Positions 1 to 12,225 of a stretch of DNA of 16,860 nucleotides are shown here, in pieces. The stretch spans positions 1 to 16,860 of the forward strand of contig JBMYPC010000062.1 of NCBI GenBank assembly GCA_049599895.1, given 5' to 3'. The notes beneath the pieces are model-generated. The model saw nothing but the letters and a program-made list of their open reading frames with translations, searched no databases and was not told the DNA's origin. Position numbers and translations under genes: made by a program. The stretch comes from Bacteriovoracaceae bacterium. GTDB lineage: Bacteria > Bdellovibrionota > Bacteriovoracia > Bacteriovoracales > Bacteriovoracaceae. Each line of letters begins with the position of its first letter. Within the stretch, counting starts at the first letter, position 1.

Positions 1-13
1 ACTTGGGATTGAT

Positions 14-55
14 TGTGGCCATGGAGGAAAATGGTTCGACTAAAAAATGGGGTGG
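14..55 (+). repeat. Junction/att-like motif copy 1 (element-end arm plus tRNA-His 3'-end core AATGGGGTGG)
   Basis: tgtggccatggaggaaaatggttcgactaaaaaatggggtgg aligns without gaps to 2942-2982. AAAAAATGGGGTGG (42-55) is identical to 10567-10580, which spans the tRNA-His CCA end. Confidence 0.85.
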
Positions 56-506
56 TGACCCCAACTGGAAGCAAACTTCTTTTCCTCGCTTCCAACTTAC
101 TAAAAACATTAAATTTGTAGCTCATCCAGCATACCTAGACAAGCAGTTCCTCCAGCAAAAATACCTTGAAGAAAAGCTCGGGGCGACGGAAATTGCCCAG
201 CTAATTGGTTCCTCCAAAACGACGGTTTTAAAATACTTGAAGCGATTTGGCATCCCCACAAGAAAGGTTGGGGCCAATCTTAGAAATCATAAAAATGGTG
301 TTGCTTATGGTCAGAAGATGGAGAAGCGAGAACTTCAGAATCATAAGAGGGAACAGGCCAATATTGATAAGATGAAGGAACTTCGTGCAAATGGCTTCAG
401 CTACTGGAAAATTGCTGAAGTCTTCAACTCTATGAAAATCCCCACCAAAACAGGGAAAGGGAAGTGGCATGCGAAGACTGTTCAGCAGATACTAGAGCGT
501 TTTTAG
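15..506 (+). CDS. Small protein with N-terminal HTH and stand-alone serine-recombinase DNA-binding (Recombinase/RD-like) domain; no catalytic domain
   Basis: HTH-like YLEEKLGATEIAQLIGSSKTTVLKYLKRFGI. RD-like AYG..L..HKREQANIDKMKELRANGFSYWKIAEVFNSMKIPTKTGKGKWHAKTVQQIL. Paralog at 2943-3437. Start is uncertain (TTG 3, GTG 15, ATG 21, all upstream of the att core). Confidence 0.8.
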   Translation: MAMEENGSTKKWGGDPNWKQTSFPRFQLTKNIKFVAHPAYLDKQFLQQKYLEEKLGATEIAQLIGSSKTTVLKYLKRFGIPTRKVGANLRNHKNGVAYGQKMEKRELQNHKREQANIDKMKELRANGFSYWKIAEVFNSMKIPTKTGKGKWHAKTVQQILERF

Positions 507-541
507 TGAGTATAAAGTTATATAAGTATTTACAGGGAGTT

Positions 542-614
542 AAATAGGGTAATCATGCTTTTAATGGGTTAATTTGGTGTTTATATTACCCTATTTCTAT
601 GATATTACCTTATT
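542..614. promoter_or_regulatory. Operator-like repeat cluster upstream of the Fic gene
   Basis: Perfect 12-bp inverted repeat AAATAGGGTAAT (542-553) / ATTACCCTATTT (585-596), plus a 12/13 direct copy ATATTACCTTATT (602-614) abutting the GTG start. Confidence 0.6.
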
Positions 615-1667
615 GTGAACTCTTTGAATCATAGCTATTTAGAAAGGCTCAAATTTGGTCAAACAGAATTAGGTACTCTAAGAAGTTTAGGTGAGTATAG
701 AGGCAAGCAAATTCTTTACTCGAAACAATCTCCAGAGGTTTTGAAGGGACTACAACAAGTGGCCGCCATAGAGTCAAGCGAGTCGTCAAATCGTTTGGAA
801 GGTATTGAGGTTCCTCACAAAAGAATTGAAAAACTTGTTTTAGAAAATACCAAACCAAAAGATCGCTCTGAGCAAAAAGTGGCTGGGTATAGAGATGCTT
901 TGTCTTTAATTCATGAGTCCCATGAGGAAATCCCATTCAGCTTGAATGTCGTACTACAGTTTCATAGTTTTATTTATAAATATATGCCCAACCCTGGTGG
1001 AAAATGGAAAAGCACAAATAATGAGATCATAGAAAAATATCCTGATGGTAAAACAAGGGTGCGATTTATACCTATTTCATCATTAGAAACGCCACAATAC
1101 ATGGAAGGGTTGGTAAAGAACTATGGTTTGTCTCTTGATAAGAATCTGGCGGATCCATTAGTTATTATTCCTTTGGCTATTCTTGATTTTTTATGTATCC
1201 ACCCTTTTTCAGATGGTAATGGGAGAGTTGCACGCTTACTAACTTTATTACTCCTTTATCATTTTGATTATAAAGTTGGACGGTATATAAGCCTTGAGCG
1301 AATTTTTGAGCAAACAAAAGAAGATTACTATCGAACACTTGAAGAAAGTTCTCAAGGTTGGCATGAAGGCAAACACGATATCATGCCTTGGGTAAATTAT
1401 TTTTGGGTTGCTTTAATGAAAGCCTACCAGGAGTTTGAAGAAAGAGTAGGAACTATAACTCCTGGGAAAGGGTCAAAAAGTAATCAAGTTCGTCAATATG
1501 TTAAAAAACAATTAAGGGCTTTTTCTATATCAGATGTTGAAAAGGAACTTCCTTGGATCAGCCGAGATATGATTAGGATAGTGCTTAGAGAAATGAGAGA
1601 TGAAAAAATAATCACATCAAAAGGAAAGGGCCGAGGGGCCAAGTGGGTTTTGGTTAACAAGAAATGA
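615..1667 (+). CDS. Fic-domain protein (putative AMPylase) with C-terminal winged-HTH-like region
   Basis: Canonical Fic motif HPFSDGNGRVAR. N-terminal inhibitory-type motif SNRLEG ((S/T)xxxE(G/N)). C-terminal FSISDVEKELPWISRDMIRIVLREMRDEKIITSKGKGRGAKW. Confidence 0.95.
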   Translation: MNSLNHSYLERLKFGQTELGTLRSLGEYRGKQILYSKQSPEVLKGLQQVAAIESSESSNRLEGIEVPHKRIEKLVLENTKPKDRSEQKVAGYRDALSLIHESHEEIPFSLNVVLQFHSFIYKYMPNPGGKWKSTNNEIIEKYPDGKTRVRFIPISSLETPQYMEGLVKNYGLSLDKNLADPLVIIPLAILDFLCIHPFSDGNGRVARLLTLLLLYHFDYKVGRYISLERIFEQTKEDYYRTLEESSQGWHEGKHDIMPWVNYFWVALMKAYQEFEERVGTITPGKGSKSNQVRQYVKKQLRAFSISDVEKELPWISRDMIRIVLREMRDEKIITSKGKGRGAKWVLVNKK

Positions 1668-2389
1668 TCATGATAAAGATAATGAAATTTAAACCAATCG
1701 CTCTTTTAATCTTGGGTTTCATTGGAGAGACCTACGCGTCATCTTGTCCCGAGGGAATGTATAGAGTTCAGGGGCATTATAGGCAGGCTCATTATAGAAA
1801 TGGGAAATATGTTAAGGGGGCAAATGTTTCACCCCACTGTAAACACTATAGGAGTGATGGCCCACTAAAACCTGAATTCAAGTTGAGGATGCCGAAGGGT
1901 TGGCCGCAGAAAAAAGAAAAGTTTAAAAAGTGTTCTAAAAAAAATCAAAAGAAAATAAATAAAGCATTATCTACTCTTCCAAAGATTTTAACAAATATAG
2001 GCAAATTAAAAATTCATTGTGCAGATAGGTCTGTGTACTTAGGTAATCCGGCGTCATCGGCTCCGAATGTGAAGATTATTGTTCTGTATGACTCAGCTTT
2101 CTCTGGAGATGTAAAGAGGTACATAGCACATGAACTAGCTCATATTCTTTATACAAGATTATCAGATGAAGAAAAAAAGATTTTGCATAAAGTGAGTTCT
2201 TGGACAGAAGATAAAAATGGAAGATTCAAGACAAAGAGGAAAAAGTTTTCTGAGCCTGATGGTGCAATCGATCCAGATGAGGACTTCTCGAACAATGTAG
2301 AGCACTACTTGTTTAATAAACGACATTTTAGAAGGGATTATCCTGAAATTTTTAAATGGCTAAAAAATCTATTTGGAGATAAAAAATGA
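1664..2389 (+). CDS. Secreted basic protein, putative zinc metallopeptidase (HExxH)
   Basis: Signal-peptide-like N-terminus (MKFKPIALLILGFIGETYA-S). YIAHELAHI motif and a downstream PDEDFSNNVEHYLF helix. ATGA overlap with the Fic stop. Confidence 0.75.
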   Translation: MIMIKIMKFKPIALLILGFIGETYASSCPEGMYRVQGHYRQAHYRNGKYVKGANVSPHCKHYRSDGPLKPEFKLRMPKGWPQKKEKFKKCSKKNQKKINKALSTLPKILTNIGKLKIHCADRSVYLGNPASSAPNVKIIVLYDSAFSGDVKRYIAHELAHILYTRLSDEEKKILHKVSSWTEDKNGRFKTKRKKFSEPDGAIDPDEDFSNNVEHYLFNKRHFRRDYPEIFKWLKNLFGDKK

Positions 2390-2868
2390 AATGGATGTTA
2401 ATGGCAACTATTTTTTTTAGTTGCAGTACTTATCAGAGTACACGAAAAAAAGAGATAGAAAGAAGATGGTTAATATTAGAACGTGCTATTGAAGATAGAT
2501 GGACACAAAAAGAAATTGTCAATTTATTAGGTAGTCCTGAAAGTAAAGATAGGGATAAAGAAGATGAGTCTTGGTCCTATAGCTCTGAAGAGAGTGGTGT
2601 TCAGGAGTGGTCAATTAGTTTTAATTTGAAGAGCAAAATAGTTTCATATATTAGTTATGGGCCTACAGGATCGCTAGATAATGATTTTACCTTGGATAAA
2701 ATTTTAAAACGTTGGGAAAGCCTGAACTGCAAGAAGAAGAAATCTAAAATGTATACAAGAGGGCACACTGTCTACCAGGATCAATATTACCTTTGTGATG
2801 GGAATAAAAGAATCGACTATAATCGTTACAATGAAGTGTCTTGGATTCGAGTGAGTAGTGGGAGATAG
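2386..2868 (+). CDS. Lipoprotein with SmpA/BamE-like motif
   Basis: Short signal peptide with lipobox MKWMLMATIFFS-C. WTQKEIVNLLGSPESK...ESWSY pattern. ATGA overlap with the upstream gene. Confidence 0.75.
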   Translation: MKWMLMATIFFSCSTYQSTRKKEIERRWLILERAIEDRWTQKEIVNLLGSPESKDRDKEDESWSYSSEESGVQEWSISFNLKSKIVSYISYGPTGSLDNDFTLDKILKRWESLNCKKKKSKMYTRGHTVYQDQYYLCDGNKRIDYNRYNEVSWIRVSSGR

Positions 2869-2941
2869 TTTAAGTCTTGTGTGGATCATCAAGCGGGGAT
2901 GGAAGTAAACAGGTTTCCTCCAGTTTAACTCTTTGAAATTT

Positions 2942-2982
2942 TGTGGTTCAGGAGGACAAAAGTTCGAGTAAGGAATGGGGTG
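2942..2982 (+). repeat. Junction/att-like motif copy 2
   Basis: tgtggttcaggaggacaaaagttcgagtaaggaatggggtg has the same 34-nt spacing from TGTGG to TGGGG as copy 1, and conserves GGAGGA, GTTCGA, TAA and AATGGGGTG. Confidence 0.8.
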
Positions 2983-3437
2983 ATCCAGTTTTTTCTTGGA
3001 GCTCTAGGTACCGCCAACTCCAAATGACTAATATCATTCAATTACCAGTCAAAAATGAGTGGAGAAATAAGGAGCTTTTATATCAAAAATACGTCGTTGA
3101 AAGGCGAAGTTTAAACGAGCTGGCGGTAGAATTTAAAGTTGCCAGACAGACAATTTCTAAGCAAATGAAGGAGTTTGGGATTTCTGTAAGGAAAAGCGGG
3201 GCAAATGTAGAAAGAAAGAGGGGACTTGCTTATGGTGAAAAGTGTCGAGATAGAAAACTAAAAGTACATAAAAGAGAAATGGAGAATATTCAAAAAATGA
3301 AAGACCTTCGAGATAAAGGTTTCAGTTATTGGAAGATTGCAGATATCTTCAATTCTATGGCGGTTCCTACAAAGACTCGTAAAGGTAAGTGGCATGCTAA
3401 GACAATTCATCAGATTTTACTAAGTAGTACTTATTAA
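2943..3437 (+). CDS. Small HTH + stand-alone recombinase DNA-binding domain protein (paralog of 15-506)
   Basis: 32 of 42 residues identical to the first copy over KMKDLRDKGFSYWKIADIFNSMAVPTKTRKGKWHAKTIHQIL. GTG start at the same offset from the att core. An internal ATG (MTNII) is an alternative start. Confidence 0.85.
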   Translation: MVQEDKSSSKEWGDPVFSWSSRYRQLQMTNIIQLPVKNEWRNKELLYQKYVVERRSLNELAVEFKVARQTISKQMKEFGISVRKSGANVERKRGLAYGEKCRDRKLKVHKREMENIQKMKDLRDKGFSYWKIADIFNSMAVPTKTRKGKWHAKTIHQILLSSTY

Positions 3438-4876
3438 TAAACTGTGTGCTTAGCATTTAGGTAGTTTAAAATATTAGTTAGGTCATCACTAGAAATATTG
3501 TTGTCATAAACAATCATTTCGATTAAGTCATAGTTTGCTCGAAATCTCTTGTCTGCATTAGTGACTGTCATGCAGCCTATCATTGCCCAGGTCGAAAGAG
3601 ATGAAGTATACTTCATCGTAAGGATTTGTAGTGAACTTGTAACATTAGAAGCACCAACATCCTCGCCTGTAGAACTAAAGCTTCCATTGTTTATAGCAAC
3701 CTGACCTGTTGTCGAACCAGTTCCATTAAAGCTTACAGTATACCCTCTATTGGTACTCAGAAAAAGGAATTCATTAAAGTCAGTAAAACCAAGGACAGCA
3801 TGTGCGCCATCTAAAACAGTTATTGCATTTTCGATAACAATAATAATTGTTTGAGCTGTGGATATGCTATTTAGGTCCATGCAGTTTCCGGTTGTATTAG
3901 CACCAGCATCTCCGGAAAACTGGATAGTACTTGAGCTCAAAGTAGGTCTGTCGCCGCCTGAGGCGGTTACATGATTATTATTGCCACTTTTATCTTGCCA
4001 ACATCCAACAGGGTCCGAGTTTGTACTTGCAACCGTACAGCCGGTGTCTTGAAAGATGGTGGAGCTGTCTGAAGCGTCAAGCCATATTGTATTTCCACCA
4101 ACCAAAGTAGGAATAATGTTTACTGTTAGATTAAAAGTGTCTTGGGCAGTTAAACTTCCATCCGATACTTCCAAGGTAATTGTAGCGCTACCATATTCAT
4201 TAGTGTTGGGAGTGAGTGTTGCTGTACAGTTTGGAGCTGTTCCTCCAAATGCAACATCTGAGTCGTTAATAAGGGTTGCGTTGGATGAACTCATTGTAAC
4301 ACTTGTTGCACAACTAAGACTTGACTCGGAGTCGTTAATTGTAAATGATAGTGCTGATGTTGAGTTATTTGCATTAATTGTTTGGTTCGATACATCTGAA
4401 ATCGTCGGTGCTGTATTTGGTGATGTTACCGTTAGTGTAAAGGTATCGCTTGAAGATAAGACTTCATCTGAAACTGTTAGGGTAATCGTTGATGTCCCAG
4501 ATTGCCCTGCTTTTGGGGTTAAGGTTACTGTGCAGTTTGGAGCTGTTCCAGCTAAAGTAATATCTGAAGAGTCAATCAATGTTGTATTTGAAGAAGAAGC
4601 AGATACACTAGTTGTACATCCTATAGTTGAATCTGTGTCAAGGATTACAAAACTTATGGCTCCTGTGCTTGTATTCATGACCGTTGATTGATCAGAAATG
4701 TCAGATATGTCTGGAATATCACCATCCACAGAACCGCTACCTGATGACCCTCCGTTATCAGTTGGTGTATAACCTTCATCTACGAATCCTTTATCCCCAT
4801 AGGGGTTATTACAAGCTGTTTGCAGCATAAGTACAAAGGTCATGATAAAAATTGTTAGACACCTTTTAAATATCAA
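3434..4876 (-). CDS. Surface lipoprotein / putative adhesin with two Ig/cadherin-like repeats and a C-terminal LamG/concanavalin-like domain
   Basis: TTG 4876 is preceded by GGAGG. Lipobox LQTA-C. Two ~102-aa T/S-rich repeats (shared GTAPNCT.TLTP and TITL.VSD). WLDASD...WQDKSGNNNH motif is typical of LamG-like domains. Confidence 0.8.
   Translation of the reverse strand: MIFKRCLTIFIMTFVLMLQTACNNPYGDKGFVDEGYTPTDNGGSSGSGSVDGDIPDISDISDQSTVMNTSTGAISFVILDTDSTIGCTTSVSASSSNTTLIDSSDITLAGTAPNCTVTLTPKAGQSGTSTITLTVSDEVLSSSDTFTLTVTSPNTAPTISDVSNQTINANNSTSALSFTINDSESSLSCATSVTMSSSNATLINDSDVAFGGTAPNCTATLTPNTNEYGSATITLEVSDGSLTAQDTFNLTVNIIPTLVGGNTIWLDASDSSTIFQDTGCTVASTNSDPVGCWQDKSGNNNHVTASGGDRPTLSSSTIQFSGDAGANTTGNCMDLNSISTAQTIIIVIENAITVLDGAHAVLGFTDFNEFLFLSTNRGYTVSFNGTGSTTGQVAINNGSFSSTGEDVGASNVTSSLQILTMKYTSSLSTWAMIGCMTVTNADKRFRANYDLIEMIVYDNNISSDDLTNILNYLNAKHTVY
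4120..4715 (-). repeat. Intragenic tandem duplication (two Ig-like units, 306-nt period)
   Basis: CAGTTTGGAGCTGTTCC occurs at 4227-4243 and 4533-4549. The protein repeats align. Boundaries are approximate. Confidence 0.85.
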
Positions 4877-4877
4877 A

Positions 4878-5723
4878 TTAAAGACCTCCAAAGCTAACTC
4901 CAAGTTTCACAGTTACCGACTCAAAGCTTTGCTTAAAACCAAAAACATTCACATCACCAGACTGAGCTTCGGCTTCCAAAGAATATCGGTCTGTGCTGGA
5001 ATCGATGTTTATTCCCGCAAAAACTTTCTTTGTATATGCACTCTCTATATTAACAGAAGGATTATTTTGTACGTGATATTGCCTATATCCGAGACCAACT
5101 TTAATACTTATATTATTTTTGCCCATAATAATGGGCATTTCTAGTGATGATCCTAGTTCAATATATAGAAGCTGGTCAGAGTCTATCTCTGCCACACCAT
5201 CAGCCAGTGTTTTTACATATGGAAGGGATTCAGTTCCAAGCTCTAGCTTCAGGCCAGTAAAACGAAAAAGTTTGAGTTTGATATTGGTACTCACACCAAA
5301 AATATTAGAAAATTTATTGTTAAGTTCATTGCTATCAGGATCTTGAAATATTAGTCTCTGAGAGTATCCAGTAATACCTACTCTTGTATCTTTTGAAAAA
5401 TAATAGTTATAAGACAACTTAAGACCAGGTGAGATATCACTGAAAACTGTTGTTTGTCTTCCTGATGCATTTTTTGATTCTATATTGCTGAAGCTCCATA
5501 TACTATTAAGACCCCAAGCATGAGGTGTTTTGCTTTTTGTTTTTGAGTATTGTGGCAATTTACTAATCACTCCTTCATCCTGAAACTGAATGTTATTTAG
5601 GTAAATTTGGTGTTCTGGCATATCAAGATTTTCGTTTTGAAACTTAATATCTTTAAAGTCCTCTTCATTTGCAAAAGAATTTATCGATAGAGAAAATATA
5701 AAAATCATCATAATGGACTTCAC
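4878..5723 (-). CDS. Exported protein, probable outer-membrane beta-barrel
   Basis: Signal peptide MKSIMMIFIFSLSINSFA. Alternating amphipathic strands (GLKLSYNYYF, KVGLGYRQY). C-terminal VKLGVSFGGL. Confidence 0.65.
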   Translation of the reverse strand: MKSIMMIFIFSLSINSFANEEDFKDIKFQNENLDMPEHQIYLNNIQFQDEGVISKLPQYSKTKSKTPHAWGLNSIWSFSNIESKNASGRQTTVFSDISPGLKLSYNYYFSKDTRVGITGYSQRLIFQDPDSNELNNKFSNIFGVSTNIKLKLFRFTGLKLELGTESLPYVKTLADGVAEIDSDQLLYIELGSSLEMPIIMGKNNISIKVGLGYRQYHVQNNPSVNIESAYTKKVFAGINIDSSTDRYSLEAEAQSGDVNVFGFKQSFESVTVKLGVSFGGL

Positions 5724-5779
5724 CTTGCCTCGCTTTGATTAGCATTCTTGATTCTTTCTTTTCTTATCTTTTTCCATGT

Positions 5780-6574
5780 TTAAAAAAACAATCCTATATT
5801 ATAATAATCATTACTTTCTTTTGATTTTAAAGTCATAGAAATGAGAGAAAGCAGTGCTTGCTCAAGGTGCTCTTTTTCAAAATCCCTACAAACCTCAAGA
5901 GCCTGTTTTAAACCTTTAATAACATCTGTTCTTGTATTTGAATCAACGATAAATCTAAACTTTTCAACTAGCTCTTTGGCAATTCTTCCATCAAGGTAGT
6001 AGATTTCTTCCTCAAGAAGGAAATTAGATTGAAAGAGTCTTGGTGGAATCATTTTTTGCTGAGCTGAACTTGGAATTCTTTTTTGTTCAACTTTTTTAAG
6101 AGAGGATAGGTATTCATGAGTTGGGATGATAAGTTTATCACCTTGCTTTATTAAGTTGATATCTTTTACTAGGGGATTTAGATGTTTAATTACAGAGATT
6201 AAGTTCCAAGGATTTTCATTTTTTAAAATATCTTTTAATATTCCAGATACAGTGTCTCCATATTTAACTTCATAGCTTGTAACTATATTTGAAGCATTTT
6301 TGCCAAACTCTAAAGGAATATTTATTTCATCATCAATATTAAGGATATTTAAATCTTTAATATGAGGATTTAAAGCCTCGAAACTCTTAAAGGCCGCTTT
6401 AAAAGGTCTAGATGAATAACTTACTTTTTTCCCATTTTGTTGTATGTACTGCATAATTATCTTGGAAAGTGATTCACCTTCTTGAACCTTGTGCTTTTGA
6501 ACATAATCCGCAGATGCAAACGAATCTAGACTTGCAAAAGTAGATATTGTTAATGGTAAAACTAGCTTCTTCAT
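5780..6574 (-). CDS. Exported protein with two LysM domains (possibly prematurely terminated)
   Basis: Signal peptide. LysM motifs HKVQEGESLSKI...LNPHIKDLNILNIDDEINIP and YEVKYGDTVSGI...LNPLVKDINLIKQGDKLIIP. Confidence 0.9.
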   Translation of the reverse strand: MKKLVLPLTISTFASLDSFASADYVQKHKVQEGESLSKIIMQYIQQNGKKVSYSSRPFKAAFKSFEALNPHIKDLNILNIDDEINIPLEFGKNASNIVTSYEVKYGDTVSGILKDILKNENPWNLISVIKHLNPLVKDINLIKQGDKLIIPTHEYLSSLKKVEQKRIPSSAQQKMIPPRLFQSNFLLEEEIYYLDGRIAKELVEKFRFIVDSNTRTDVIKGLKQALEVCRDFEKEHLEQALLSLISMTLKSKESNDYYNIGLFF

Positions 6575-6660
6575 AATCTAATCATCGAGATATAAAGACT
6601 AGAACTTAAACAAAGGTGTTGAAATGTAGCAGTTTAGAAAAATTTGCCTAGTATATGATA

Positions 6661-7398
6661 CTAGTTACCGAAACTGACACCCAGGTATAACTGGAGAGAT
6701 TTATTTTCTTGATCTATGTCGTCGACTTTTTGTGTATACGAGGAGTTTTTAATTCGAAAGTCGATACTTGAGCTTGAGAAATAATAGTTAAGCTCTGCGC
6801 CGAGTTCCATTTCTCCTGTTGAGGGTAGGGATTTCCCCTCATCTGTAGCTAGGAAAAAGTAGCGATAGCCTAAATCAAGCTTTGCTGTTAACCCAGATTT
6901 CTTTTTTCCTGTTATAGATGGCGTGAAAAATAATCCAAGATTAGTGCGATTAACTGATTTGATTTTAGCAATACTAAGCTCATCATTATTTATGTATATT
7001 CTAGAGTCCTTTCCTATTCTCAGCTCAGGTCTTAACCAGTATTTATAAAAGCTAATAATTGCATTAATACCATTAAGCTCAACTTCCGAATTATCGAGAG
7101 AGCCTGTAATTGGATTATTAAATCTAACTACTTCTGAGTAACCCTTAAGTCCTACCACAATACCTGAACTTGCCATATATAAATTTGAAAACTCAAATCC
7201 GCTCGAAGACTGTCCGGGTAAGGATGTTTTCGTAGAGTTCTCTGAGTCAGTAAAACTGATTAAGTAATAACTTTGCCTAAGGCCAAAAGAGAACTTATAG
7301 TTGGAGTAACCCTTTTGCACAAAAAGAGTATTTATTAATACTGTTAGTATTATGTATTTACTCATTTTTAATGTTAGTGTTTTGGCCATTCTTGGCAA
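6661..7398 (-). CDS. Exported protein, probable outer-membrane beta-barrel
   Basis: AGGAGG before TTG 7398. Hydrophobic signal segment. Amphipathic strands (KLDLGYRYFF, ELGAELNYYF). C-terminal LYLGVSFGN. Confidence 0.65.
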   Translation of the reverse strand: MPRMAKTLTLKMSKYIILTVLINTLFVQKGYSNYKFSFGLRQSYYLISFTDSENSTKTSLPGQSSSGFEFSNLYMASSGIVVGLKGYSEVVRFNNPITGSLDNSEVELNGINAIISFYKYWLRPELRIGKDSRIYINNDELSIAKIKSVNRTNLGLFFTPSITGKKKSGLTAKLDLGYRYFFLATDEGKSLPSTGEMELGAELNYYFSSSSIDFRIKNSSYTQKVDDIDQENKSLQLYLGVSFGN

Positions 7399-7573
7399 AT
7401 TACCTCCTTGAGAATAAACTTCTACCTTCTCATAATAATCAATCGGTAAACTAAGGCTTTTTAAAAAACTGACTTCTTAAGTTTGGAAAATCTTTCCTGT
7501 CTTTTTGTGGTTCTTTAGACAAAAAGAAAGGCACTACCTGGATGACTAAGTACCTAAGTGGGACTCCTAGATG

Positions 7574-7603
7574 AGACCCTTGTTCGAGGTACCGGGGTCT
7601 TTT
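7574..7603 (+). terminator. Possible intrinsic terminator/attenuator hairpin in the leader of the 333-aa gene
   Basis: AGACCCT (7574-7580) pairs with GGGGTCT (7594-7600), followed by a short T run. Confidence 0.4.
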
Positions 7604-7637
7604 CCTATAAACATTTCTTTTAACCAGGAGGATTGCG

Positions 7638-8639
7638 ATGCAAACCAAGAAAGAAAACTGTCTAGTTCAAACAAACGTAATTTTTAACGAGGAGGTCGAA
7701 ATGAAAGATTACAAACTTGAACAACTGGATGAAAACTATGGATCTTTAGTTGAAGAGATTCTGTGTGAAGTATTTCACATCGAAGATCAGGATGATTCTT
7801 TAGAAAGCATGCATGAAGCAGCAATTTATGATTTAAGAAGTGATAGTGAGCTTGAGATCTCTAAAGAAAGAGAACTTAGGAGTCTAGATGGTGACTCGGC
7901 ACCAACAGAGGACTTGAAGCTGTTGGAAGAGCAAGCTACTAGTTACTTTAAGAATCCTACAAAAGTCTTTACGCCATCAGAAGACGTTATTACAGATGAT
8001 GTTATTACTGGATTTATCCAAATTAATGCGGGGTTGAAATTCGATAAAGATGGAAAGCCGATAGAGATTTGGAAAAGCTATGGGCAGAAGTTAGTTGTAT
8101 CGCTTGATAGGCTCTACAACCCAGAGTCTATTAATTCTCAAGTAGAGTCATTGGGGTTTGAGTTATCAGATATGGTTAGAGTCGTATTCTATGGAGCACC
8201 TCTTTCGAAGATAGTCGGTTCTAGAGAATATGTAAAAGGTGAAAAGAAAACCCTAGAGCCTCTTTCAGATATCTACTCTAATATTCTATTAGCCATCCCG
8301 GCTGAAGAAAGAGGTGGTACTGATGATTCTATATTCTCTTTTGTTGATAGGTTAGTGAAGGACTCTATTCAAACAGGAGCAGAGTTGGGGCTTGATCGTT
8401 GCACTATCGGTCATTGGGAAATGACTCGTATTAGGTTGGATGAATTAAAGCAAGAAGAGGTTGAACTAAAAGAATTGAGAAGGATTGAAAAGATTCAAGC
8501 TGGATTTTCTCAAAGAAGGAAAAGTTATGTTGATAACTTTAAAGAAGCGAAGCAAGTAATCAAAGGACTGAATGATATGAGTCTTAAGGTTAGAGATCTA
8601 GTAGATGTCGATTCAAAGCTTATCTATCAGTTGCAATAA
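7638..8639 (+). CDS. Hypothetical acidic protein (element backbone); 3' end may be a deletion junction
   Basis: 333-aa ORF. Strong SD before both ATG 7638 (AGGAGG) and ATG 7701 (GAGGAGG). No recognisable family. Confidence 0.7.
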   Translation: MQTKKENCLVQTNVIFNEEVEMKDYKLEQLDENYGSLVEEILCEVFHIEDQDDSLESMHEAAIYDLRSDSELEISKERELRSLDGDSAPTEDLKLLEEQATSYFKNPTKVFTPSEDVITDDVITGFIQINAGLKFDKDGKPIEIWKSYGQKLVVSLDRLYNPESINSQVESLGFELSDMVRVVFYGAPLSKIVGSREYVKGEKKTLEPLSDIYSNILLAIPAEERGGTDDSIFSFVDRLVKDSIQTGAELGLDRCTIGHWEMTRIRLDELKQEEVELKELRRIEKIQAGFSQRRKSYVDNFKEAKQVIKGLNDMSLKVRDLVDVDSKLIYQLQ

Positions 8640-8881
8640 GTGGATCATGGTTAGATAGTGAAGGAGCTAAGAATGAAAAAACAACTTGGCACTCCGTAGC
8701 TGTATGGAAAAAGCTAGCAGACTTATGTCGTGATCATCTTAAGAAAGGTGATCTTGTGTTTGTTGAAGGTGAAATTACAAATTCATCTTGGACAGATGAG
8801 AATGGTAAAAAACACCAAACAAGTGAAATAAAAGCTAAACGTATTTTGTTTTTCGATTCATTTAAATTTACGAACAAGTAA
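8618..8881 (+). pseudogene. ssb: 5'-truncated single-stranded DNA-binding protein (OB fold), not in the ORF track
   Basis: Frame reads AYLSVAISGSWLDSEGAKNEKTTWHSVAVWKKLADLCRDHLKKGDLVFVEGEITNSSWTDENGKKHQTSEIKAKRILF, the SSB consensus. No start codon precedes it, there is an in-frame TAG at 8591, and the first beta-strand is missing. Confidence 0.88.
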
Positions 8882-8939
8882 AAAGCTGGAAGGTTACTAT
8901 AAATCGCTTGGTATTCCTAAGCTAAAAAGGAGACCGTCC

Positions 8940-9168
8940 ATGGACAAAAATACAAATGCTAACCCACGATCAATTTGATGAATACTATTCAGATGAAATT
9001 ACTTTAGAAAAGGCACTAATTAGAGTTGCCCCATTATTTGTAAATTCATTGATTAGGAAACACCCATCGCTGATGTTAGCGATTGTACTTGCTGACGTTG
9101 CATTAGAAGTTAGAAATAACAGGAAAGCGAAACGAAAGTTTGGCGAGTTAGTTCTAATAAAAAGTTAA
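8940..9168 (+). CDS. Small hypothetical protein, probably frameshifted near its start
   Basis: AAGGAG precedes ATG 8940, which is out of frame with the 70-aa ORF 8956-9168 unless one A is removed from the A5 run at 8946-8950. Confidence 0.5.
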
Positions 9169-9191
9169 ACAACAATACCTATTTCCAGCTT

Positions 9192-9221
9192 CCCTAGGGG
9201 AATTAATCCTCTGGGGTTTTT
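9192..9221 (+). terminator. Intrinsic terminator
   Basis: CCCTAGGGGA / TCCTCTGGGG stem (with G-U pairs) followed by TTTTT, just after the stop at 9168. Confidence 0.65.
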
Positions 9222-9248
9222 ATTAACCACTTACTATAGGAGTTAAGT

Positions 9249-9545
9249 ATGATTGAGCAAAGAGCTGAGCAAGCACAACAAAGTTATGAACCAGAAGTAG
9301 AAAAAGGCTTTTTAAGTGATGGAATCCTTTCACTAGGTGGAAGTGTATTCAGTACTGTTGGAAAAGTAGCACTCGCTATCGGAACAACGGGAATCCTAAT
9401 GTATCTGTTCTACCAACTTGAAGTAATTGTTGGATTAGGGACAGTACTTACAGGAGCTATTGCCATTTGTGGTGGTGTCGCCTCAATGGCCTTAGGTAAC
9501 AAAATGTCCACAGGAAGTTTCCTTGATGGATTATTAGGTGCCTAA
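9249..9545 (+). CDS. Small Gly-rich membrane protein
   Basis: AGGAG SD. 98 aa with two hydrophobic segments. Followed by a terminator. Confidence 0.7.
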   Translation: MIEQRAEQAQQSYEPEVEKGFLSDGILSLGGSVFSTVGKVALAIGTTGILMYLFYQLEVIVGLGTVLTGAIAICGGVASMALGNKMSTGSFLDGLLGA

Positions 9546-9551
9546 CTCACT

Positions 9552-9574
9552 AAGGGGCCTAGAGCCCCTTTTTT
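9552..9574 (+). terminator. Intrinsic terminator
   Basis: AAGGGGC-ctaga-GCCCCTT followed by TTTT. Confidence 0.8.
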
Positions 9575-9579
9575 ACTAA

Positions 9580-10584
9580 GCATGGTTAAAAAATAATAAA
9601 GAAATCGAACAAGTTAAAATTATCATGCAAAAATTTAATGAGCATCTTTCTTATAAGTCTCTTTTGGTTGAGCTAAGTGAGATGGGTGTAAAAAACAAAA
9701 CAGGAAAAGAATTTAATGTCCCATCATTGAAGAGACTTCTTACTAATAAAAAATATATTGGTAAGCTTCATGTTCCTACTGATTCCGATAATGAAGAAGT
9801 ATATGTTGATCTTCCATTTGGTGCTGTCATAGATAAGGAACTTTTTGATAAAACACAGGCCAACGTAGCTGTCGTAGAAAAATTAAGAGGATTTAATAAA
9901 AAGCGGTCTCGCTTATATGCCCTAACAGGTATTTTACACTTTGAGGATGGATCTCGTTTTACTGGTAATTCAGGTACTGCTCGAAATGGTGCACCAAAGT
10001 ATTATTACTACAACGCCAAAAACAAGGTTCGGGTTTCCGCTGATGAGATTGAATCTGCTGTATTTAACTCTTTAAGAGTCTTTGAAGACAACGAAAAAAT
10101 GATTGAGCATGCTAAGAAGGTTAAAAAAGAAACATTTTCGAAATTAGACTTCGTGAAAAATGAGATCTCTAAGAGAAAAAAAGAATTAAAAGAAATATCC
10201 AAGGAAGAAGACTCTCTAATGGAGACATTGAGAACTGCTGAAGGTGGAAAGTCTGGCCAAAGAGTACTTCGTTGGCTGGATGAACAGCTTGAAGGACTTG
10301 AAGAAAGGAAAAGATTAACTAAGGAGGCGATCTCAAGTCTTAAAAATGAGCAGCTAGATTTATCGGAAGCCAAAGTAGATGCAAATTCATTAAAGAAGTC
10401 ATTGAAAGTTGTTTTTGACCGCCTGGAGGCTTCAGATCCTGCAGTAAAAAGAGGAATAGCTCGTCAGTTATTTAAATCAGTTAAGTTATGTATGGGGAAT
10501 CGTCTTGAGGTTTCTTGGAATCTTCCGCTGAGCCGTGGCTCTGGCGGTAAGTATTCCTCGAATAAAAAAAAATGGGGTGGCTGA
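9580..10584 (+). pseudogene. Large serine recombinase (integrase), missing the N-terminal catalytic resolvase domain
   Basis: Frame is open from 9580 (TAA at 9577) and reads NKEIEQVKIIMQKF...SLKRLLTNKKYIG...AVIDKELFDKTQ (recombinase domain), YALTGIL...KYYYY (zinc-ribbon position), a coiled coil, then KRGIARQLFKSVKL. It ends inside the tRNA-His 3' end. Confidence 0.9.
10534..10580 (+). repeat. Junction/att motif copy 3 (tRNA-proximal att site)
   Basis: cgtggctctggcggtaagtattcctcgaataaaaaaaaatggggtgg aligns to copies 1 and 2 with a 2-nt and a 3-nt insertion. Confidence 0.8.
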
Positions 10585-10649
10585 CGGGGCTCGAACCCGC
10601 GACACCTAGAATCACAATCTAGTGCTCTACCAACTGAACTACAGCCACC
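10573..10649 (-). tRNA. tRNA-His (GTG)
   Basis: Minus strand reads GGTGGCTGTAGTTCAGTTGGTAGAGCACTAGATTGTGATTCTAGGTGTCGCGGGTTCGAGCCCCGTCAGCCACCCCA: G-1:C73 pair, GTG anticodon, T-loop GTTCGA and encoded CCA. Confidence 0.98.
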
Positions 10650-10670
10650 ACAAGTCTTGTTCGAGTGAAC

Positions 10671-10699
10671 TTTATACTTACGCGGTAGGGTGAAGTCAA
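10671..10699 (-). promoter_or_regulatory. Sigma70-type promoter of tRNA-His
   Basis: TTGACT (10699-10694), 17-nt spacer, TATAAA (10676-10671). Confidence 0.8.
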
Positions 10700-10795
10700 G
10701 AGACCCTTGGCAAAAATGCAGGGGATTTCAGGGGCTTAGAGTTGAATTTTTGGAGCGAAATTGGGGACTTTTATAAAGATCTGGCCCGAGATTCT

Positions 10796-10824
10796 TTGAC
10801 GTGAGCGCAGTTAGCGAATAAAAT
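10796..10824 (+). promoter_or_regulatory. Sigma70-type promoter for the 10873-12610 operon
   Basis: TTGACG (10796-10801), 17-nt spacer, TAAAAT (10819-10824). Confidence 0.7.
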
Positions 10825-10872
10825 TTTAAGTAGTTATATTTAATTTTATAACGCATCTTGTTGGAGAATTAT

Positions 10873-11478
10873 ATGAAATCAATTGTTTTACTCGCATCTC
10901 TTATCGCCTCATCAAGCCTTTGGGCCTATGGAACAGGTCTTTCAACTGCACCAATGGTGAAAAGTAAAAAGTATGTTTCTGCTGAACTTACGGGAGTAAC
11001 TTCAACTGGTGGTGGTGTAGGGCTTCAAGCGCGTTTTACACAGCAGGCCACTCGAAACGTTGTTTTTGATGCTGGTATTGGGATGAGTGGTGGCGACTAT
11101 GACAATCGCCTCTTTGTTGGCGCTGATTATCTTATCTTTCCAGATTATCAAAAGCAGCCACGTTTTTCTGTAAAGGCCACTCTTGAAAATGCTGAAGAGC
11201 TTGATTCAAGAAGAAACATTGTTGGTCTTGCACCAACTGTTTCAAAAGGATTTAACTTTTGGGGAACGGAAGCATATCCATTCTTAGCTCTTCCTATAAA
11301 TCTTAACCTCAACACTGATTCAAAGAATTACGAAACAACGATTGCTGCAAACCTTGGTATTCTGGGACAACTTCCCATTCAAGGTTATGAGCATCTCACT
11401 TACTCAGTTGAAGGAACGATTAAACTGAAAGATTCTCTTTCAGGGATTTTTCTTTCAATCGGTTATCCGATCGATTAA
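10873..11478 (+). CDS. Exported hypothetical protein, probable small outer-membrane beta-barrel
   Basis: GGAG SD before ATG 10873. Signal peptide MKSIVLLASLIASSSLWA. Gly/aromatic-rich strands, ending IFLSIGYPID. Confidence 0.7.
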   Translation: MKSIVLLASLIASSSLWAYGTGLSTAPMVKSKKYVSAELTGVTSTGGGVGLQARFTQQATRNVVFDAGIGMSGGDYDNRLFVGADYLIFPDYQKQPRFSVKATLENAEELDSRRNIVGLAPTVSKGFNFWGTEAYPFLALPINLNLNTDSKNYETTIAANLGILGQLPIQGYEHLTYSVEGTIKLKDSLSGIFLSIGYPID

Positions 11479-12225
11479 TTGAAAGTGAACTTTAAAAAAC
11501 CGAAAGTCGTATTCAGTGACTTTGATGGAACCCTCACTCAGGGGCATGTGATTACCCCTGAGCTCTTTGAAATTTTAAATCATTGTCATTACCAAGACGC
11601 AGACTTTGTTATTCATACAGGGAGATCTCTATCTTGGGGACATTGTCTGCTTTCTCATCTTCCTCATCTGAAATCAGTGATTACAGAAGGGGGAGGAGTT
11701 TATGTCACCAGAGATCCAAAGAATGGCTTAATGACTGAACATTTTCTTGTTGAAAAAGAAAGTTATGAGAAGCTTGAAGTGGTTACTCAAGAGCTTTTAA
11801 AGAAGTTTCCCATTCTTGAACTCTCAAGAGATTCGATTGGAAGAATCACTGATCGAGCGATTGAAAAAAAAGACTTATTAGATCTTTCAGTTCTTAAAGA
11901 CGTTAAGGCTTTTTTAGATGAACATGAAGTGACTTATTCTGTTTCAAATGTTCACCTCAATTTTTGGTGTGGTGAAGTTGATAAGTATAAGGCCTTACTA
12001 AAGTTTATTGATCGCGAATATGACAATGTCTCTGAAGATGACTGTTGGTTCTTTGGGGATAGCCTCAATGACGAACCCGTCTTTAAAGACCTTAAACACA
12101 CCGTAGGGGTTCACAACCTTAATCTTATCAAAGAAGAATTTAAAGATCTTCCAAGTGTGATCTTAGAAGACCCTGAACATACCGGTCCCACGGGAGTTCT
12201 GGCGTTTTTAAAAGACAATCTTTAA
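11479..12225 (+). CDS. HAD-superfamily hydrolase, subfamily IIB-like
   Basis: Motif I FSDFDGTL, motif II HTGRS, motif III K (VDKYKA), motif IV GDSLND. Confidence 0.92.
   Translation: MKVNFKKPKVVFSDFDGTLTQGHVITPELFEILNHCHYQDADFVIHTGRSLSWGHCLLSHLPHLKSVITEGGGVYVTRDPKNGLMTEHFLVEKESYEKLEVVTQELLKKFPILELSRDSIGRITDRAIEKKDLLDLSVLKDVKAFLDEHEVTYSVSNVHLNFWCGEVDKYKALLKFIDREYDNVSEDDCWFFGDSLNDEPVFKDLKHTVGVHNLNLIKEEFKDLPSVILEDPEHTGPTGVLAFLKDNL

Follow-up and report, generated by a model that had tools for sequence, protein, structure and literature searches.

A conserved helix-turn-helix and recombinase-domain tail as the very probable severed 3' end of large serine integrase genes at tRNA and tmRNA genes

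Several systems are known in which an integrase gene contains or overlaps its own attachment (att) site. In the Myxococcus phage Mx8, attP lies inside int, and integration swaps a 112-amino-acid (aa) C terminus for one of 13 aa, which yields a less active enzyme (PMC4701971, PMC4383910). The 'suicidal' integrases of SSV1 and pT26-2 integrate into tRNA genes, which splits the integrase gene, and orphan fragments accumulate (PMC7253208). In streptococcal rumA integrative and conjugative elements (ICEs), the att sites lie inside serine integrase genes, and Mx8 is cited alongside (Ambroset 2016, PMC4701971). In the ssrA islands of Dehalococcoides, the 3' end of dsiB always overlaps att, with stop codons only beyond it (McMurdie 2011, PMC3146451). 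McMurdie 2011 suggested that DsiB may reach full function solely on the circle or where a neighbouring island supplies the required 3' fragment, kept a trivial explanation for the overlap open and, in the accessible sections, named no such fragment (PMC3146451). According to Islander 2015, the integrases that cross attP include those of Mx8 and SSV, and no serine integrase was known to target tRNA genes. Here, we analyse 16,860 nucleotides (nt) from a Bacteriovoracaceae bacterium (assembly GCA_049599895.1; JBMYPC010000062.1, the complete contig C62 of its genome, G000), hereafter the window. It carries two tandem elements at a tRNA-His gene, each beginning with a small open reading frame (ORF) that encodes a helix-turn-helix (HTH) and a recombinase domain (RD). 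We call these ORFs tails, and they are very probably the cut-off 3' ends of large serine integrase genes.

The arrangement shares features with each of these systems. As with DsiB (as far as the accessible text goes), it involves a large serine recombinase, a transfer-messenger RNA (tmRNA) 3' end, tandem islands and a gene overlapping att. Specifically, 52 of the 54 integrase ORFs adjoining a tRNA or tmRNA 3' end cross the core, tmRNA-targeting members included, as in the DsiB-type layout of a 3' overlap with att and a stop codon that falls within RNA-gene antisense or in the following island. Unlike what those sections report for DsiB, the 3' fragment is here a conserved 150-aa HTH and RD module, in matched frames, at tmRNA and several tRNA types. 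The rumA ICEs differ in having a protein-gene target and a reciprocal 3' exchange that changes the frame, with no conserved appended domain described in the accessible sections (PMC4701971). Judged by analogy, Mx8 appears to be the best functional analogue, with attP within the integrase gene and a C terminus swapped by integration; unlike Mx8, a tyrosine recombinase, the proteins here have serine recombinase domains and an unrelated tail. The SSV1/pT26-2 likeness lies in integration at a tRNA gene that splits the integrase gene and leaves orphan fragments. Those enzymes are archaeal tyrosine recombinases cut into two inactive pieces, whereas here a serine-family protein keeps its catalytic and classical DNA-binding domains together and an extra tail is removed (PMC7253208). 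Compared with A118/LI, SPbeta, Bxb1 and phiC31, there is the same series of catalytic domain, RD, zinc-ribbon-type domain (ZD) and coiled coil, with dyad att sites and a 5-bp shift (PMC3783163). Unlike them, the proteins here have a C-terminal HTH and a second RD-like domain, and att lies inside the gene; arm similarity extends ~35 bp from the centre, versus 25 in classical large serine integrases. The original prediction knew of no such layout for a large serine recombinase; even the accessible parts of PMC3146451 and PMC4701971 already place att inside a serine integrase gene. What is new, set against those parts, is the identity of the conserved tail. We found no description of a conserved HTH and recombinase-domain tail, or of frame co-variation, in the open-access literature, and nothing on att within a gene in the accessible sections of PMC12884075.

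In the window, the integration target is a tRNA-His (GTG) gene at 10573-10648 on the minus strand, and three copies of a 9-mer core bound the two elements: A (tail A, a Fic gene and two ORFs) and B (tail B, cargo, backbone and integrase; table 1). Everything that had first been noted in the sequence is borne out. The integrase ORF 9625-10584 reads across core 3 and ends in tRNA antisense, and its Trp-Gly frame is also the one in which both small ORFs run through their cores. ORF 15-506 is start-less: none of the 60 codons that follow the core in tail A is ATG, GTG or TTG. In tail B a single ATG follows the core, at codon 17. When core 3 is joined to core 2 in silico, a stop-free frame of 484 codons results, which adds 153 residues to the integrase. 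The Pfam Recombinase family matches both small ORFs above its cut-off (E 7.7e-6 and 3.4e-5), and HTH families match them below the Pfam cut-off only. The nearest named relatives of tail B (at most 82% identity) come from genomes labelled Halobacteriovoraceae and Bacteriovoracaceae. The 9-mer core is not rare by itself (21 matches across the genome), so the significance of the layout rests on homologs and not on the window.

To compare homologs, each tail was assigned the integrase that came next downstream on its own contig and strand, and both frames were read at the core. Tail B has matches in 75 of 201 genomes of the family, and the integrase has matches in 46 of the 201; phylum-wide, 107 of 251 genomes have tail matches, and integrases were sought in 40 of those. 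All 15 pairs of the first set were in frame with no stop, tRNA-Pro arrays added three matching pairs, and a second sample, drawn phylum-wide after the idea was fixed, gave nine matches in nine pairs, each with a perfect six-base core. (With an anchor of +/-8 nt, the core was missed in three of these nine, G359, G268 and G223, two of which read as mismatches; with +/-40 nt, a 6/6 core was found in all nine.) That is, the rebuilt attP is open and in frame in 27 of 27 genome pairs lying on one contig. These pairs cover three frames and 13 target/frame classes, the targets being tRNA genes for His, Met, Asp, Pro, Ala, Ser, Val and Asn, and tmRNA. A full match arose in 75 of 200,000 within-target permutations, a figure inflated by non-independence of kin. 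In the tRNA-Pro array of G084, for example, two adjacent elements with the same core are read across it in different frames, each fitting its own tail; the junction between both elements is out of frame. Left out of the 27 were outer non-cognate tails (five of seven matching), three cross-contig pairs and two guessed pairs from the window's own genome (all matching). Counting one mismatching metagenome locus discussed below, the rebuilt attP of homologs at tRNA or tmRNA genes keeps integrase and tail in a common frame in 27 of 28 same-contig pairs. Random frames across the core, which the original prediction had named as counter-evidence, are thus not seen, and the proposal that the HTH-RD ORF was severed from the 3' end of a large serine integrase gene, and is joined to it only in the attP state, is upheld. 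On these sequence comparisons, it is very likely that the att core lies inside the integrase gene.

The tails themselves point the same way. The core hexamer lies near its expected place in 92 of 111 unique tails, and in 88 of the 92 within -1/0/+1 nt of the point 34 codons before an invariant Leu. A stop in the tail frame within codons 3-14 occurs in one of 88 tails. The two other frames have 30 and 36, and the tail frame itself has 41 immediately before the core; once the tails are clustered, the counts are 0 of 60 versus 24, 26 and 32. Stops are therefore avoided only from the core on and only in the tail frame, which means that the openness starts at the core. A conserved start past the core (the ATG of the MTNII motif in tail B) had been named as an observation that would count against a severed tail. 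Codon 17, the proposed start, is instead a hydrophobic codon that is ATG in only 10 of 92 tails and is not conserved, and 45 of 92 linkers lack any ATG, GTG or TTG. As a separate observation, an unrelated upstream ORF is in frame with the tail at attL in two loci (L064 929-1678 and L217 3837-5363), giving chimeric ORFs of 250 and 509 aa.

Fused proteins also occur in nature. Among 141 candidates, a search for longer relatives returned two fused proteins, P0001 (665 aa) and P0002 (700 aa). Each is a full integrase that continues via the same Lys-Trp-Gly motif into the tail, and two more such proteins, P0130 and P0142, are among the best 150 profile matches. With L075, these make up the full-length fused proteins with Resolvase and Recombinase domains; partial fused frames are present in L120, L122 and L204, and L077 also has a fused frame. 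In L041 (868-2847) and L042 (880-2853) the tail is permanently fused and the joint has no core; L041 lies ~0.7 kb from tRNA-His, and the second att site was looked for and not found. In L049 (~2380-2460, minus strand), a tail comes directly after the integrase and is in a different frame; their overlap carries an A-run and lacks a clear core, possibly a frameshift, programmed or accidental. Searches for free forms gave little: no plasmid record covers 80% of P0001 (3293 partial matches), phage records hold one weak RD match only (in 2 records), and of 18 IMG/VR loci two have true tails (L156 and L157) and none the fused form. Weak Firmicutes matches (L138-L155) were rejected as tails, being ordinary integrase RDs. 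L156, on an IMG/VR contig of 67.5 kb, carries two oppositely oriented tails separated by ~10 kb, one of which has a core frame of the tRNA-Asn type.

Structure models agree with the domain assignments. Resolvase and Recombinase are both above Pfam cut-offs in L033, L041, P0001, P0002, P0130 and P0142. The P0001 model (mean predicted local distance difference test score, pLDDT, 87.9; predicted template-modelling score 0.50) matches serine integrase structures (9dxh, E 1.6e-18), as a classical large serine integrase would. A ZD and coiled coil follow the RD in this model, with long helices at 356-448; a Pfam zinc-ribbon match is weak and confined to P0002. Past the classical part, residues 504-529, which att encodes, are disordered, and a strand (532-536) precedes the two tail domains. 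Tail B alone models at pLDDT 81, with an HTH at ~32-67 and a second domain at 79-153. The latter aligns with serine integrase RDs over 75 residues (Z 8.7 with a root-mean-square deviation of 2.2, and Z 8.3; deviation ~2 in both), a structural Z near 8 being only moderately above background, and Foldseek with the tail alone gave no match at E <= 0.001 (top hit a serine integrase, E 0.044). The tail is thus predicted, from these models, to consist of two DNA-binding modules. The first tail HTH also recurs as 7-14 tandem repeats in unrelated long proteins (P0003-P0020). Catalytic-domain-only ORFs of small serine recombinases lie inside three paired elements (G048:C66 125209, G246:C1 59090, G337:C3 404326), a position like that of CcrA in its element or of DsiA, the small second serine recombinase of a six-gene module, in the DsiB islands; the window has no such ORF.

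The att sites have the geometry of large serine integrase substrates. Across the 16 attP sites that were rebuilt, the arms match most often about a dyad centred after core base 5 (326 matches versus 181-234 at other centres), and this centre gives the highest score in 13 of 16. The symmetry therefore places the crossover inside the core and not outside it, an alternative that the original prediction had allowed for, and we infer from the sequence that it falls at the fifth and sixth core bases. A T-loop-matching motif stands at position 15 of the tRNA-side arm (attB') in 27 of 28 cases and most often at 20 in attP arms (P 10/28, P' 34/88). P and B' identity is best at a 5-base shift (0.40, versus 0.21-0.30 at other shifts; 51 ends), and in the LI integrase the ZD motif is shifted by 5 bp between attP and attB (PMC3783163). 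Dyad sites, a central crossover and a 5-bp shift are all found in silico. The integrases appear to read the conserved tRNA/tmRNA T-loop through a zinc-ribbon-type domain, which would account for the many RNA targets.

In the window itself, the arms to the left of cores 1 and 2 (13-47 and 2940-2975) look like integrase 3' ends minus exactly 5 nt, and their attB-type spacing mirrors the tRNA T-loop. This answers an earlier caveat, drawn from the TAA before cores 1 and 2, that the usual form might be a separate gene starting in the arm: the stops are accounted for by the length of these arms, which fall 5 nt short of every intact integrase arm in the comparison. The shortening could have re-created attB for the next insertion. 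As a general route to tandem arrays, P-arm shortening found no support, since among 88 left-of-tail arms the motif is at 15 in four and at 20 in five. In L043, L046, L059, L068 and L079, a hairpin and A-run are visible by eye in the last integrase codons before the core. They would be a terminator of the tRNA or tmRNA on the other strand, which would put codons, att arm and terminator in one stretch.

A simple mechanism can be proposed on this basis. The island integrase gene very probably contains the att core, so that insertion at a tRNA or tmRNA gene severs the tail coding sequence, leaving an inserted form that ends in tRNA-antisense codons. In the excised circle, the integrase would be rejoined to a predicted DNA-binding tail of ~150 residues. 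This tail would add DNA contacts that raise attP x attB activity, and the tail-less inserted enzyme would be weaker, as reported for Mx8. By analogy with that phage, we lean towards a switch in which the fused (circle) form is integration-active and insertion turns the enzyme down; this direction is favoured because the incoming circle encodes the fused form and because permanently fused chromosomal copies exist. Taken as a whole, the best explanation is a split gene with a tail-bearing circle form likely to be integration-active, which we hold with modest confidence.

A number of observations weigh against this picture. The mismatching metagenome locus, L232, has a truncated tail and asymmetric arms (symmetry score 5; cognate mean 14.1, non-cognate mean 9.4), and two in-frame pairs, G196 (score 6) and G337:C3 (score 7), are at background symmetry, which makes their pairing uncertain. 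No core lies within 12 nt of the expected place in 19 of the 111 tails, and tail codons 3-16 lack third-position bias (230/220/220), as could be expected if a flexible linker also serves as a DNA site. Many orphan tails are intact, and an integrase is found at the tRNA in only 3 of 27 tail-plus-tRNA loci, a sample of at most ~20 kb per locus that includes duplicates and is biased to short islands. The tail-less integrase retains every classical domain, and the tail may be dispensable. P0001 and P0002 may originate from circles or from tandem arrays. A circle junction was not seen in Logan contigs of runs X1-X4 over 1-11500, nor in those of X1, X3, X4 and X5 over 2700-3700, such contigs dropping rare forms, which makes this no evidence of absence; read depth is flat in the likely source run, the best-matching one, from a seawater metagenome.

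One alternative makes the tail a small gene of its own, whose start is variable or non-standard and whose frame match is inherited or a by-product of symmetric att DNA. The missing codon-position bias and the many intact orphan tails fit this, as does the presence of some ATG, GTG or TTG in 47 of 92 linkers. Yet the other 45 linkers offer no start-type codon, stop avoidance from the core onward is confined to the tail frame, the frame co-varies with the cognate integrase over 13 classes and full-length fusions occur in nature. We therefore consider a separate gene very improbable. A different possibility grants the split gene and makes the tail essential, so that insertion kills the gene, and a fused enzyme supplied by an incoming circle or a tandem junction is required for excision. 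This would parallel SSV-type integrases (PMC7253208) and resembles what McMurdie 2011 suggests for DsiB in the accessible sections (PMC3146451). Integrase loss is frequent, this window included, and a conserved hydrophobic tail strand (P0001 532-536), predicted to be ordered, might complete the fold. The inserted form nevertheless has catalytic, RD and downstream domains and, at 510-600 aa, is like working integrases in length, which leaves a dead inserted gene rather unlikely.

The opposite logic would have the fused tail hold the circle excised, as an attached recombination directionality factor (RDF) or autorepressor, with the tail-less form as the more active integrase. Engineered integrase-RDF fusions favour excision, and the structure matches of the tail include 9teh, which is such a fusion. 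The tail is two predicted DNA-binding modules, its HTH being like repressor HTHs (rank 6, Z 6.6, a level common by chance), and no RDF gene was identified in the elements, in which no search aimed at RDFs was made. On the other hand, the incoming circle must integrate with its own protein, that is, the fused form, and chromosomal integrases permanently fused to a tail exist (L041, L042). An excision-holding tail is unlikely on these grounds, and we retain a circle form that would be integration-active and an inserted form that would be turned down.

The window's own copies appear from their sequence to be relics, A lacking an integrase and B a catalytic domain. The integrase ORF 9625-10584 (319 aa) has its Recombinase domain at the very start and no Resolvase (catalytic) match in Pfam. 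Its frame is closed upstream at ~9579, it aligns from ~residue 185 of a 514-aa intact relative, and a tblastn search of window 1-9630 found no catalytic remnant. A contig of run X4 agrees with the window to either side of 9574/9580 and holds 11,330 more bases at that point; given these extra bases and the missing catalytic domain, element B is most simply a deletion relic. With that domain deleted, it would be unable to make a working fusion alone. The claim that excision of element B fuses its integrase to the tail thus stands for the open, in-frame join and falls for a functional product. A second deletion in element B lies at its start-less single-stranded DNA-binding protein (SSB) frame (8633-8881), a relative having ~560 more bases near 8624-8634. 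In element A, no integrase gene is left. The window itself is accordingly of low value.

Table 1. Features of the window (+ and - give the strand; RD, recombinase domain; ZD, zinc-ribbon-type domain).
Feature	Position	Strand	Basis or remark
Left arm, junction 1	1..47	+	remnant resembling integrase 3' end; attB-type spacing; common to end of contig C183
att core copy 1, left junction of element A	46..54	+	predicted crossover 52/53
Tail A, orphan HTH and recombinase-domain 3' fragment of integrase gene	48..506	+	first 60 codons without start
Fic-domain gene, element A cargo	615..1667	+	PF02661, E 1.4e-13
Two ORFs without Pfam match, element A cargo	1664..2868	+	ORF list, Pfam
Left arm, junction 2	2940..2975	+	~35-nt integrase 3'-end remnant; attB-spaced T-loop-like motif
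att core copy 2, attL of element B	2974..2982	+	predicted crossover 2980/2981
Tail B, 153-codon 3' fragment of element B integrase gene	2976..3437	+	
Tail B parts: linker/P' arm; HTH ~residues 32-67; RD-like domain ~79-153			structure model
P' arm distal repeat, 8 bp	3009..3016	+	exact inverse of 10542-10549 about crossover
Element B cargo: cadherin/immunoglobulin-like protein, LysM protein, two ORFs without Pfam match	3434..7398	-	
Element B backbone ORFs, including start-less SSB frame 8633-8881	7638..9545	+	
Deletion joint	9574..9580	no strand	relative's contig (run X4) with 11,330 extra bases; integrase 5' part gone
5'-truncated large serine recombinase	9580..10584	+	RD, predicted ZD and coiled coil; no catalytic domain
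P arm distal repeat, 8 bp, within integrase frame	10542..10549	+	
att core copy 3, attR	10571..10579	+	predicted crossover 10577/10578, in tRNA acceptor stem

Elsewhere in the same genome, contig C183 is identical to the window over a short stretch (C183 5196-5250 = window 1-55); the sequences part right after the core, and C183 carries a third tail with an internal stop. The overlap suggests strain variants or a further element at the tRNA-His site. A full-length integrase lies at tRNA-Met on contig C73, and there are four further tail matches (C105, C112, C214 and C220), of which C105 and C112 share the C73 frame.

For the family as a whole, the split layout accounts for the small 'recombinase family' ORF often met with at the edges of islands, and the integrase-tail family is common, as the phylum-wide counts above indicate. 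With the missing 3' fragment now named, the 2011 suggestion for DsiB becomes directly testable. Mining such islands for genome-engineering integrases would yield tail-less forms whose C termini are junk, and these might test as weak or inactive. Should activity or direction be set by the tail, this would be a control of serine-integrase directionality without a separate factor. In its widest form, which we put forward only tentatively, a phylum-wide family would read the T-loop and set its direction without a separate factor, recombination itself adding or removing a two-domain tail, and annotations of the inserted state would be truncated.

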